Virus record (IMG/VR): IMGVR_UViG_3300025933_000001
Coordinates: 23,722 to 87,721 of that record
Length of the DNA: 64,000 nt
From: a virus
Reading direction: 5' to 3' (one strand)
Part shown: positions 4,119 through 38,093 of the stretch, one piece after another
Layout: each line of letters opens with the position of its first letter
Position numbering within the stretch: the first letter of the stretch is position 1
Position numbers and translations under genes: made by a program
The notes under the pieces: model-generated
Databases searched by the model: none
The model's input: only the letters and a program-made list of their open reading frames with translations
Told to the model about the DNA's origin: nothing

Positions 4119-4168
4119 TGTTAATAACCCTGTGGATAACTTTTAAGTTATTAACAATGTTATCCACA
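4119..4168. promoter_or_regulatory. cluster of four DnaA boxes
   Basis: TGTTAATAA (4119), TGTGGATAA (4131), TTATTAACA (4148), TTATCCACA (4160): two perfect and two 1-mismatch matches to TTATNCACA. Confidence 0.75.
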
Positions 4169-4388
4169 AGCCATAATTGTACTAATAATGGTAATTATGA
4201 TACTACTTAGTAATTATAATCCTCTGTAATTCCCTATAATTCGTACACAAACACATATTCTGTAAAGAAAGATTCTATAGCTTTGCACACACAACAAGGA
4301 TGCTTCTGTAAGTGGGGTATTTTGTACACAACACAAGATATTATTGCGATAGCGTAATAATACATTTACCCCACAACATAGAGATTAT

Positions 4389-12161: not shown

Positions 12162-12626
12162 TCAAAGACCAGCTTCAAGTAGTGCTTTTGCGATAGCTAC
12201 AGACAGTTTTTGCAGCTTTTCATCATCAATCTGCTTTCCTTCCTGTTGCATATCGACAGCTTCATTAAGCACATCTGCGACTTGTTGTTCGGCTTCTACG
12301 CGGCGTTTTGCAGCTTCAGAGCGAGCATTAGCACGTCCTTTCTTTTGATCATTGTCAACGGCTAGAATGTTTGGTACTTTGCGGTATGTACGCGGCAAGC
12401 GTTGTCTAATGTATACTTCTTGGCCTGTAGCTTCAGCAAACCGTTTTGCAAGTACTTTGCTATCAGCTTCAGACAATTGAGTTGTGTTCTTGTAATAGTC
12501 GAAACCCACATACTTGGGTTTTTCATCGCCCTCCTGCCATGCTTTCATCCTACCATTGTTGAGAGTATCAGCGATGAAAACTACAGGTTTGTTTTCGTGG
12601 TCAAGGCGGCAAAGAATTTGAGTCAT
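12162..12626 (-). CDS. hypothetical protein
   Basis: 154-aa ORF with GGAG RBS, own promoter (~12701-12730) and terminator. Confidence 0.75.
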   Translation of the reverse strand: MTQILCRLDHENKPVVFIADTLNNGRMKAWQEGDEKPKYVGFDYYKNTTQLSEADSKVLAKRFAEATGQEVYIRQRLPRTYRKVPNILAVDNDQKKGRANARSEAAKRRVEAEQQVADVLNEAVDMQQEGKQIDDEKLQKLSVAIAKALLEAGL

Positions 12627-12744
12627 GTTAAAAGCTCCAGTAAGTTAGTAATAGATTGATTCGTTGCTTGCTTGTTAGAGTTGCGCTGAATCGATAACCG
12701 AATAGTACATAGCGTTTTCTATTTATGCAAGGGTTTTTAACTAA

Positions 12745-13185
12745 ATAATTAACCTTTCCATAATTAGTTATATGGAAAGAGTCACTAGCAGTTAAAAATT
12801 TCTCTTGATAAATGCTGAAAACGTTCTAAGATGCTATAAGCCGATAAAAGTTTGCTCGAAGGTTTCTCTTCGCCTTTCGCAAGCATTGACGGTCTATTAC
12901 ATATAGAGGAGTGATTGCATAACTATTCTTTGTTGATTCTTTAGACCTGTTTTATGGCGTGTGATTGCGCCTGTTGTTTGACGTGTGTCAGAGGGATTGT
13001 TTCGCCCTTTCGTTTCATCCTGCTTATTGCTTGGAGGGTTCGCTATGCCTGTTTAATTACTTGTTACTAATGCTTGATTACTGAAAATGGATAGTAGTTA
13101 GCTATCCATAACAATTTGCTATCTGTTTGCGCTGTTAGCGATGGGCTTTCTATTGCCTTTTCGTTAATAGTGCTAAACATTTCGC
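12745..13185 (-). ncRNA. candidate large structured non-coding RNA
   Basis: No ORF of 60 aa or more; many local and long-range complementary segments; extended -10 at 13188-13197; terminal hairpin 12754-12779. Confidence 0.5.
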
Positions 13186-13219
13186 GCCTATACCACATTT
13201 ACAGGTAGAGGAGGGCAGC

Positions 13220-13362
13220 TATTGTGTAAAAACAACATATTGTTGTATGGAACCAACGTTTTGTTTGTTTCACACGACAGTTTTGTCACGTCTATACAAC
13301 ATTGTTGTATAAAAACAACGGTGTTGCTATTTTACAACTTAAAATTTACAATTTTGACAACA
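13220..13362. repeat. tandem array of 18-bp palindromes TGTTG-N8-CAACA
   Basis: Copies start at 13220, 13241, 13262, 13284, 13303 and 13322, plus a half-site copy at 13345. Confidence 0.8.
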
Positions 13363-13593
13363 CTTTTGGCCTGTCCTCGATCAGAAACTGGAGTTGGGCT
13401 GCGGAGGAAAACACTCTAAGAAGGACTTAAATTTTTCCCCCGAACTTTTTGAGAATTTCAGGCCAAACGAATTTGAGATTCCAAAATGTCTGAAAGTTTT
13501 CCCTGCAGAGCCTTGATGTGTAAACATTGTACTACCATGTGTAAGGAAAATGCAACCAAAAGTGCTGTCAGGGTAAAAGATATTTACAGTTTT

Positions 13594-13914
13594 CTACCAC
13601 AAATCTTCAGTACACAGCGATCCTTTAGTCTGCAACCTTCCACTCTTCACTTGATTAGCAAGCAAGGCGATCATTGCAGCTTCTTCCCTTGTTACAAACT
13701 TGTATTCATTTGTAATGAAGCCATGCTTACCTTTGATAGGATGGGGGTAGTTGCTATCAGCTAATCTTGCCAAGATATGTTTATGTCTATTAGGAGGAGC
13801 AAGCCAATAGCACACTCCGTCATGGTCAGAAATAATAGCAGCAGCTACAATTTTAGGGACATGCGGCTCTGCTGAATTGTATACAGGGAGGAAGTCTACG
13901 TTCTTAACTATCAT
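13594..13914 (-). CDS. conserved phage protein
   Basis: IVAAAI...RH...GFITNEYKFVTREEA...LCTEDLW pattern, common in phages. Confidence 0.7.
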   Translation of the reverse strand: MIVKNVDFLPVYNSAEPHVPKIVAAAIISDHDGVCYWLAPPNRHKHILARLADSNYPHPIKGKHGFITNEYKFVTREEAAMIALLANQVKSGRLQTKGSLCTEDLW

Positions 13915-15030: not shown

Positions 15031-15112
15031 ATCTTACTTACCTACTTTATCAGTGTCAATACGTGTTTTATTTTAAATGCGCTTGACAATAGATAAGAAC
15101 GTTACGTACAAT
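15031..15112. promoter_or_regulatory. divergent sigma70 promoters at the strand switch
   Basis: Minus: TTGACA-17-TAAGAT (15031-15059). Plus: TTGACA-18-TACAAT (15083-15112). Palindrome GTAAGAATCTTAC overlaps the minus -10. Confidence 0.75.
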
Positions 15113-36728: not shown

Positions 36729-37037
36729 ATGACACGAACAATTAAAGTATTCCCTGATTATTGCAGCACAGGGCTGTGGGAGAATCAAATAAGTGTTGAT
36801 GTAGAGCAATTTGATTGGTTGCCTTTCTCTGCAACTATGGCTCTTCGGTATTGGCATCGTGCATGGGAGATGCTGTACGACTACGAATCTTGTAAGTGGA
36901 TGGGGTCTACTTCATACTATAAAGAGTGGTACGAAGACGGTAAAGAGCTTGTGAATATTATGAATGAGTATTGTCACTACCATGGTATTGAGTTTACCTA
37001 TGCGGCTGAGACGCCTGAAGAATTGTTCGGAGGGTAG
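36729..37037 (+). CDS. hypothetical protein
   Basis: GGAGG RBS; PDYCSTGLW. Confidence 0.65.
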   Translation: MTRTIKVFPDYCSTGLWENQISVDVEQFDWLPFSATMALRYWHRAWEMLYDYESCKWMGSTSYYKEWYEDGKELVNIMNEYCHYHGIEFTYAAETPEELFGG

Positions 37038-38093
37038 ATGACTAGATTATGTTTTGATATAGATTTTATCCTCTTTGCAGCAGCCTCTGTGGCAGAACAA
37101 AACTACATTGTTGCTACTCACATTCCTACTGGTGAAAAGATGGAATTCGAGAACCGTACAGCACTATGGGGAGATTGGCGTAAGAAGAATGGTGGATGGC
37201 TTGGGCAACAAAATAAAGAAGCTGGAGAAACAATCTATCTAGCAGAAGAGTTTGTTGTAGAAGAGTGTAAACGCCCTAGAATGCTTACGTTTGACGGTAA
37301 GGTAGTAAGCCCTCTCAATGGAGCAAAACGTTTAGTAGACCAGAAGATTGAAGAAATCTGTAAGAAGCTTGGTACGAATACGTATTACGGATACACTGGA
37401 AGAGGGGAAGTATTTAGGCATGACGTAGCTACTTTACAGCCTTATAAGGGCCAGCGCAGTGAAGTTAAACCTCTTATCCTAGAAGAGTTAAAAGATTATG
37501 TAATCGAGAAACATAACATCCAGCTTGTTACAGGTATTGAAGCCGATGATGCCGTTAACATGGATACTCACCAAGCTTACGAACGTTGGAAGAAGTCTAA
37601 AAGTGACGATGATAAGCTTGTGGCTGTGGCAATAGATAAGGACAATAAACAGACGCAAGGCTTCCACTACAACCCTGACAAGGACAGTGCTGTACGTGAA
37701 ATTAATGGTTTCGGTAAGCTGTGGTTGGACAAGAAAGGGGAAGTGGATGGTGAGGGGAGATGTTGGCTTTACTACCAAATATGCTCTAAAGATCAAGCAG
37801 ACAACTATGCCGCTAACTGCATGTCTGAGGTGAAATGGGGAGAAAAGTCAGCCTACGAGGCATTGAAAGACTGTAAGAACGATAGAGAAGCTTGGGAAGC
37901 AATTGTTAGAGTATTCAAGAGGCTTTATCCTGAACCTAAGACAATTAAGAACTTCAGAGGGGATGTTATAACTATTGACTATCTTCATGTTATGCAAGAA
38001 ATGGCTACATTAGCTATGATGCTTAGGTATGCTAATGGAGATAAGATCGACGTAAAAGCTGTACTAACTAAATTAGGAATTGAACATGACTAA
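37038..38093 (+). CDS. 5'-3' exonuclease (T7 gp6/FEN-like)
   Basis: DIDF, YKGQR, IEADD, IDKD and D..DNY motifs. Confidence 0.88.
   Translation: MTRLCFDIDFILFAAASVAEQNYIVATHIPTGEKMEFENRTALWGDWRKKNGGWLGQQNKEAGETIYLAEEFVVEECKRPRMLTFDGKVVSPLNGAKRLVDQKIEEICKKLGTNTYYGYTGRGEVFRHDVATLQPYKGQRSEVKPLILEELKDYVIEKHNIQLVTGIEADDAVNMDTHQAYERWKKSKSDDDKLVAVAIDKDNKQTQGFHYNPDKDSAVREINGFGKLWLDKKGEVDGEGRCWLYYQICSKDQADNYAANCMSEVKWGEKSAYEALKDCKNDREAWEAIVRVFKRLYPEPKTIKNFRGDVITIDYLHVMQEMATLAMMLRYANGDKIDVKAVLTKLGIEHD

Follow-up and report, generated by a model that had tools for sequence, protein, structure and literature searches.

A phased array of asymmetric 18-bp iterons in a rhizosphere phage genome belongs to an element that recurs in unrelated phage lineages

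Introduction

The origin of phage lambda (ori-lambda) comprises four phased dyad repeats of 18-19 bp with A-tracts, which are bound by dimers of the O protein, lie inside gene O and are followed by an A+T-rich region. Other phage origins are activated by transcription: the primary origin of T7 consists of promoters followed by an A+T-rich stretch, T4 oriF and oriG of a middle promoter with an unwinding element, and to our knowledge none of these has an iteron array. Repeated binding sites for the small terminase lie beside the terminase genes at cosB of lambda and at the pac sites of SPP1 and P1. A further 18-bp site, TGT-N12-ACA centred near -55, is the target of the activators Ogr, Delta and B at the late promoters of P2, P4 and 186 (PMC3931495). 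Here we describe an array of 18-bp dyads with the arms TGTTG and CAACA in a phage genome assembled from rhizosphere metagenomes (IMG/VR record IMGVR_UViG_3300025933_000001). Its consensus, shared with other phages, is TGTTG-YRTAAAAA-CAACA.

The stretch analysed, called the window in the following, covers bases 23722-87721 (64 kb) of the 87,721-bp record, and coordinates without further label are window positions. The ends of the record overlap by 99 bp, indicating a circular assembly. An initial annotation, made from the letters of the window alone, had described the array as six to seven helically phased palindromes bound cooperatively by a protein, and had offered a sponge for a host factor, an operator or enhancer, a centromere- or iteron-like element and a terminase site as possible roles.

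Results

The array and its sites

The array spans 143 bp (13220-13362; genome positions 36941-37083) and consists of six TGTTG-N8-CAACA dyads and one half-site (Table 1). The start-to-start steps are 21, 21, 22, 19, 19 and 23 bp with a mean of 20.8 bp, i.e. two helical turns. The spacer inside the dyads is constant at 8 bp whereas the linkers between them vary from 1 to 4 bp, with 5 bp ahead of the half-site. This supports the register chosen in the initial annotation, and positions, sequences and spacings of all seven elements are as given there. The sites are not purely palindromic: the iterons fit an asymmetric consensus, follow each other in the orientations + + - - + - and end with an element of which only one half is a site.

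Sites with at most one mismatch to the arms occur eight times in the whole window, four of them inside 120 bp. The densest 125 bp hold four sites if one mismatch is allowed and six sites if two are allowed. Using the composition of the window as well as that of the surrounding non-coding gap itself, 300 Markov-simulated sequences of 64 kb gave maxima of two and four sites, respectively, and none reached three or five. A chance origin of the cluster is excluded.

Scored with a weight matrix built from other phages (see below), sites 1, 2 and 5 are strong (21-26 bits) and sites 3, 4 and 6 are weak (8-13 bits). Iteron 2 has 16 of 18 bases in common with the iterons of locus L018. Iterons 4 and 5 together make a perfect 19-bp palindrome (13293-13311).

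Occurrence in other phages and in cells

Two adjacent dyads are found at more than 119 loci of IMG/VR. Among the matches listed, about 35 loci carry arrays of 3-7 dyads at a spacing of 18-23 bp, and many of them share the spacer too. A stricter pattern which includes the spacer finds 34 IMG/VR loci in about 15 unrelated lineages of 36-61% G+C, with arrays of 2-7 copies, against a chance expectation of roughly 0.2 loci by our own estimate, which assumes ~10^11 bases in IMG/VR. Site pairs are the most frequent form in this family. The tandem pattern has a single match in 596 Gb of cellular genomes (185,579 bacterial and archaeal species), which is about the chance level. The element is therefore specific to phages and rare in prophages. 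A literature search by motif returned nothing relevant.

The weight matrix, as the initial annotation had suggested, was used for scanning the phage genome. It was built from 61 sites, all from other phages, and run across the whole 87.7 kb. Sites 5, 1, 2 and 3 are the best matches in this order, and the first three exceed the best scores of all five shuffled genomes (9.7-11.8 bits in four of them, 17.8 bits in one). As no comparable match exists elsewhere in the genome, the array is a single-copy cis element. The feature that defines the family, i.e. at least two sites of the asymmetric consensus 18-23 bp apart in a phage genome, is present here: the array is a genuine member and the sole such cluster of this genome.

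In other phages the motif is found within replication genes, near packaging genes and next to promoters. In L142/L147, TGTTGCGTAGAAACAACA and a second copy are contiguous and in frame (MLRRNN-MLRKNN) inside the gene of a 218-aa lambda-O-like initiator, just after its N-terminal winged-helix domain. One of the two iterons (TGTTGCGTAGAAACAACA) recurs as an identical 18-mer in lineages A and C. Arrays of TGTTG-N8-CAACA stand at the same place in the initiator-like open reading frames (ORFs) of L072, L056, L118 and L045.

At least eight lineages (A, B, C, D, E, J, K and O) have the array 0.06-1.7 kb from the genes for the small or large terminase (TerS, TerL). These arrays are usually located where a leftward early/replication arm and a rightward late arm diverge, as seen in the complete genome G002 (44 kb) and in lineages A-D. 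Three lineages, B (L129), H (L013) and N (L137), have a sigma-70 promoter that matches the consensus at 11-12 of 12 positions and starts 14-22 bp past the last iteron. Its orientation relative to the asymmetric iteron is constant in the three loci, with sites near -60 and -85.

The DNA next to the arrays is often of low stability. Of 17 loci, 8 have their least stable 60-bp window at most 200 bp away from the array. In the complete genome G003 (60 kb) the least stable window of the entire genome begins 3 bp after the array, and the order is array, consensus promoter, least stable DNA.

Lineage A carries its array in a non-coding region of 0.65 kb. There, positions 2390-2720 of L094 hold CTAGGTTGCA twice and two ACTGTATATAAAA-like elements, and a G-run follows immediately after the iterons. 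Multi-repeat regions of this type are usually termed origin or packaging region. Contig ends at arrays were considered as physical termini and rejected: L127 and L128 are a branch of the assembly, with an overlap of ~100 bp beyond which they differ.

Natural variation

A variant strain is represented by contigs of two other samples. It has six differences in a single contig piece of 126 bp (13272-13397). Two changes hit both one-base linkers flanking iteron 5 (13302 and 13321), whose arms are intact. The others lie at 13339, which is already off-consensus, at 13349 and 13350 in the non-matching left half of the half-site, and at 13367. No base matching the arm consensus is altered, an outcome which for six changes is ~15% likely by chance. 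The sparing of the consensus is thus suggestive only. The two adjacent changes convert the -10-like TACAAT into TATGAT, which keeps a match of 5/6. The change at 13367 disrupts one pair of a 15-nt inverted repeat (Table 1) with no compensating change.

Variation is concentrated at 13302-13541, with 11 changes in 240 bp; the 1200 bp on its left have 1 and the 1959 bp on its right have 3. A variable segment right after the array likewise accounts for the contig break of L127/L128 in another phage.

The array was also considered as the edge of a 10.6-kb terminal repeat (2.8-13.4 kb). This was rejected since the unitig depth is equal on both sides of 13457 (217-222 in X2, 398-416 in X3). A comparison of the boundaries at 2.8 kb and 13.4 kb found no repeat in common.

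Gene content and search for a binding protein

The phage encodes a T7-type primase-helicase, PolA, an exonuclease, a ribonucleotide reductase, a thymidylate synthase and many HNH endonucleases. Compared with the proteins of Pseudomonas myoviruses (Pakpunavirus, Nankokuvirus, KIL-like), the identity is 40-55% for the primase-helicase and the large terminase; the large terminase also resembles that of Felix-O1-like phages (~37%). A T7-type primase-helicase and PolA without recognisable initiator are found in this phage as well as in G002/L140/L141, L106, L093 and L086.

All-against-all comparison (BLAST and phmmer) of the ORFs around ~150 arrays did not bring out any family of proteins that the carriers share. 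Of the proteins in three complete carrier genomes, PolA alone is shared by all at E <0.01. No mutual similarity is seen among the TerS candidates from lineages that carry the same iteron.

Two protein families were found near arrays of other phages. GP88 (PF17338 / phrog_1617), a protein of ~240 aa with three invariant cysteines, is encoded in at least nine loci, nearly always 0.05-3.4 kb from the array and once at 7.6 kb. It was rejected as the binder: its structural model (pLDDT 65) has no clear fold match, and the weak matches are enzyme-like, including radical-SAM enzymes. A search of this phage for GP88 found none. A conserved zinc-ribbon protein of ~95 aa with several CxxC motifs, whose gene lies 0.25-0.75 kb from the arrays of three lineages, is a candidate for the binder there. 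This phage has no homologue of it.

Surroundings of the array

The array lies in a non-coding gap of ~970 bp within a block of leftward, small, early-type genes (~5.3-15.0 kb). Divergent consensus promoters are located at 15031-15112. On the gene strand the gap has no ORF of 50 aa or more. It matches no Rfam family, a tRNA search found none, and neither gap nor array shows DNA similarity to any of 50,697 GenBank phages. No close relatives of the two flanking genes were found in IMG/VR, and residues 1-84 of the 154-aa protein have only viral hypothetical proteins as look-alikes in the ESM Atlas. Four sites with two mismatches to TGTTG-N8-CAACA are found inside the 154-aa gene (12208-12360). They score low with the family matrix and probably reflect chance or codon bias.

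A rightward sigma-70-like element is embedded in sites 6 and 7, though about eight chance matches as good are expected in the 3.5-kb stretch scanned. Its orientation relative to the strong iterons is the same as that of the consensus promoters by the arrays in L129, L013 and L137. The scan showed no good leftward promoter beside the array, and the link to a candidate promoter of a non-coding RNA, drawn in the initial annotation, finds no support. The 15-nt inverted repeat right of the array closes a predicted fold on both strands, which is modestly better than shuffled sequences (z -1.9 on the plus strand, -2.6 on the minus strand).

By stability, the right end of the array ranks among the lowest 2.6% of the genome and a window 169 bp leftward among the lowest 0.9%. 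The A/T tracts that had been pointed out at 13430-13500 turn out to be unexceptional, as the segment has 65% A+T compared to a genome mean of 60% and is not outstanding as an unwinding element.

A 65-aa ORF on the plus strand (13222-13419; TTG start 7 nt after GGAGG, a good Shine-Dalgarno sequence) spans the array. In the variant strain five of its codons are changed, four of them non-synonymously, and the ORF is probably not a gene.

Table 1. Positions of the iterons, of other features around the array, and of genes near arrays in other phages (prefixed by the locus).
Feature	Position	Strand	Remarks
Iteron 1, TATTG-tgtaaaaa-CAACA	13220-13237	+	strong; 21.7 bits; second best match of the genome
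Iteron 2, TGTTG-tatggaac-CAACG	13241-13258	+	strong; 21.1 bits; third best match of the genome
Iteron 3, TGTTT-N8-CGACA	13262-13279	-	weak; 13.4 bits; fourth best match of the genome; two arm mismatches
Iteron 4, TGTCA-N8-CAACA	13284-13301	-	weak; 8.1 bits
Iteron 5, TGTTG-tataaaaa-CAACG	13303-13320	+	best site; 25.7 bits; top match genome-wide
Iteron 6, TGTTG-N8-CAACT	13322-13339	-	weak; 9.9 bits; left arm provides the -35-like TTGCTA
Half-site	13345-13362		only the CAACA arm fits; overlaps the -10-like hexamer; not a matrix match
Sigma-70-like promoter, TTGCTA-17-TACAAT	13324-13352	+ (rightward)	right edge of the array, in sites 6 and 7; 9/12 match
Inverted repeat, 15 nt	13355-13369 with 13556-13570		93% complementary; encloses 186 nt right of the array
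Non-coding gap, ~970 bp	12627-13593		within the leftward early gene block; holds the array
Flanking gene, 154 aa	12162-12626	-	next gene downstream on the minus strand; no Pfam or PHROG family
Flanking gene, 106 aa, phrog_839	13594-13914	-	upstream on the minus strand; phrog_839 is of unknown function
GP88 gene (examples among others)	L105:361-1089; L036:1168-1929; L013:12533-13084		
Zinc-ribbon protein gene, ~95 aa, several CxxC	L013:12151-12438; L137:5106-5387; L136:6347-6715		0.25-0.75 kb from arrays

Discussion

It is almost certain that the array serves the cooperative docking of a dimeric, sequence-specific DNA-binding protein. The initial idea that a protein binds the array cooperatively along one face of the DNA is strengthened in three ways: the phasing is real, motif and spacer recur in about 15 unrelated lineages, and the variant strain spares the consensus bases of the arms. 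The binder is probably encoded by the phages themselves and fast-evolving.

As to its function, we tentatively favour an origin-type iteron platform coupled to transcription, although this is a first choice among several rather than a confident assignment. We infer the origin function from several features: iterons lie within initiator genes of other phages, six to seven sites follow each other contiguously, each genome has a single copy, arrays across the family neighbour unstable DNA, and a T7-type replisome without initiator is shared. Six dimers on 18-bp dyads about two helical turns apart would be aligned along one face of the DNA, and the A-tracts of the spacers would contribute phased bends. 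Dimers and bends together could wrap ~140 bp into a single nucleoprotein complex. Such an assembly of the lambda-ori type would be coupled to transcription from the small rightward promoter in its right edge. Complex and transcript may then aid the opening of adjacent DNA, where the T7-like replisome of primase-helicase and PolA would load.

The likeness to ori-lambda concerns the 18-bp units with inverted arms round an A-rich centre, their near-contiguous arrangement at about two turns and the single copy. The lambda-type arrangement of at least three phased dyad iterons of ~18-19 bp is present. Moreover the same motif lies in frame inside O-like initiator genes of other phages, right after the DNA-binding domain, which lends support to the iteron-like element among the roles first suggested. 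In contrast to ori-lambda, the sequence is a different one, the array is intergenic and neither beside nor inside an O-like initiator gene, its flank is not the least stable DNA of the genome, and the replisome is T7-like instead of consisting of host DnaB and a P-type loader. The transcription-activated origins of T7 and T4 are resembled by the T7-type replisome of this phage and by the order of array, promoter and unstable DNA in carriers such as G003. Unlike in those origins, the promoter here is weak and the unwinding element modest.

Several observations weigh against an origin. An O-like initiator is not found in this genome: searches for O-like initiators and HTH_36 proteins with phrog_270, phrog_428, PF04492 and PF13730 fail, and a profile of the array-bearing initiators has no match here while the positive control L142 is detected. 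Comparison of an O-like initiator profile by hhalign with every ORF of three genomes likewise gave a probability of at most 6%. Among the arrays inside initiators the spacer consensus is present in L142/L147 only, the others sharing just the arms that were searched for. The low stability of DNA by the arrays may only reflect promoter-rich intergenic DNA. In this phage the flank is not the best unwinding element anyway, as the least stable 40 bp of the genome start at ~4180 beside a cluster of DnaA boxes (4119-4168), and cluster and unstable DNA together (4119-4220) are a competing candidate for the origin. Moreover, the arrays upstream of TerS/TerL in at least eight lineages and those abutting promoters in three fit packaging or transcription control equally well or better.

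Finally, the element is missing in the closest relatives found, L170 (IMGVR_UViG_3300021088_000001) and L165, whose identity to this phage is 65-66% for an HD protein, 49-52% for thymidylate synthase and, for the primase-helicase, 57% (L170) and 43% (L165). Neither has such an array, including the equivalent divergent region of L170 (2030-2900). It is also absent from the cultured relatives checked, HTVC027P and 023Pt_psg01 for carrier lineages and vB_PaeM_G1 for this phage. The element thus was apparently gained by individual lineages.

An operator or enhancer linked to a promoter is only slightly less probable than an origin, if somewhat doubtful. Here a dimeric regulator of the phage would activate or repress the adjacent host-type promoter (rightward, antisense to the early genes) or block leftward early read-through into the distal early genes, with no role in replication. 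This role gains support from the consensus promoters 14-22 bp from the last iteron and their constant orientation in L129, L013 and L137, from the element of the same orientation in sites 6 and 7, whose -10 hexamer is kept at 5/6 despite a double substitution, and from the prevalence of site pairs in the family, which are typical of operators. In addition the sites literally satisfy the consensus of the Ogr/Delta activator site of P2 late promoters (PMC3931495), TGTTG-N8-CAACA being a subset of it with the same length and outer TGT and ACA. The P2 site between the divergent portal-terminase and capsid-TerS operons is comparable to the arrays which carriers have upstream of TerS/TerL.

However, P2 has single sites at four dispersed late promoters with GTTG/CAAC-like arms 13-14 bp apart, while six tandem sites occupy one place here and no strong matrix match is found upstream of structural or terminase operons. 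A gene for an Ogr_Delta zinc finger (PF04606) is absent from this genome at E up to 10. The local promoter is of a quality expected by chance and has no obvious gene to drive, and a regulator would not usually have six to seven contiguous sites and only one target in 88 kb. As the promoters by arrays elsewhere already match the consensus, an activator should be unnecessary there. The in-frame arrays within initiator genes are left unexplained by an operator. Regulation and an origin coupled to transcription are not mutually exclusive.

We consider a packaging site of the pac or cosB type, on whose dyads TerS or an accessory factor would assemble to direct the first cut of the concatemer nearby, to be rather improbable in this phage. 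Repeated, phased, putative protein-binding sites that adjoin TerS/TerL in many carriers resemble cosB and pac. In L119, TerS (phrog_12559) begins ~130 bp after the array, and in lineage B ORF F9, which is related to HNH-type endonuclease ORFs, lies between array and TerL. Typically, packaging modules of the cos type have an HNH gene next to the terminase. The single copy per genome would fit too. A terminase site as first suggested thus suits other phages but suits this one poorly: TerL (genome 14020-15471) and the putative TerS ORF (genome 15486-16112, no family match) are 21 kb away from the array, and nothing comparable is found upstream of them. The mutual dissimilarity of TerS among lineages with the same iteron and the arrays within initiator genes do not agree with packaging either. 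The contig ends at the arrays of L127 and L128 are 100-bp assembly overlaps, and in this phage contigs span the array at equal unitig depth.

A centromere-like or architectural site, i.e. a segrosome of the parC type or an anchor positioning phage DNA in the cell, is very unlikely. With their contiguous arrangement on one face of the DNA, repeats of ~20 bp are reminiscent of parC in type II partition systems, and the array is single-copy. Against this, none of ~35 ORFs scanned with Pfam or PHROGs looks like ParA, ParM or TubZ, the gene content is that of a lytic phage, and other carriers have no partition genes beside their arrays. Least credible is a decoy that titrates a host transcription factor: many tandem sites and the lack of a conserved phage-encoded binder in three complete carrier genomes would agree with it, but the tandem motif is found in cellular genomes only at about the number expected by chance, we know of no host regulator with this consensus, and a single host factor is unlikely for carriers that span 36-61% G+C and, to go by the cultured relatives of some of them and the sample of this phage, marine, freshwater and rhizosphere habitats.

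On a wider scale the array might mark a so far undescribed system in which a cis element spreads horizontally, mostly among virulent phages, and is paired with a rapidly evolving binder. T7-type replisomes without any classical initiator would be served by it as an origin or organiser coupled to transcription, and the same box would find further use within the genes of O-like initiators, at promoters of late operons and at the borders of modules. We put this forward as a speculative proposal of rather low probability. Should it be true, phage origins could be predicted by means of the element.

In nearly all uncultured phages the origins, packaging sites and regulatory hubs have yet to be mapped, and the 18-bp box is a rare handle on them at the level of sequence. 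For this phage the array provides a precise target of 143 bp. The binder would represent a new and widespread DNA-binding specificity or protein family of phages. If the box marks origins or master promoters, it can be used for annotating them in metagenomic phages.

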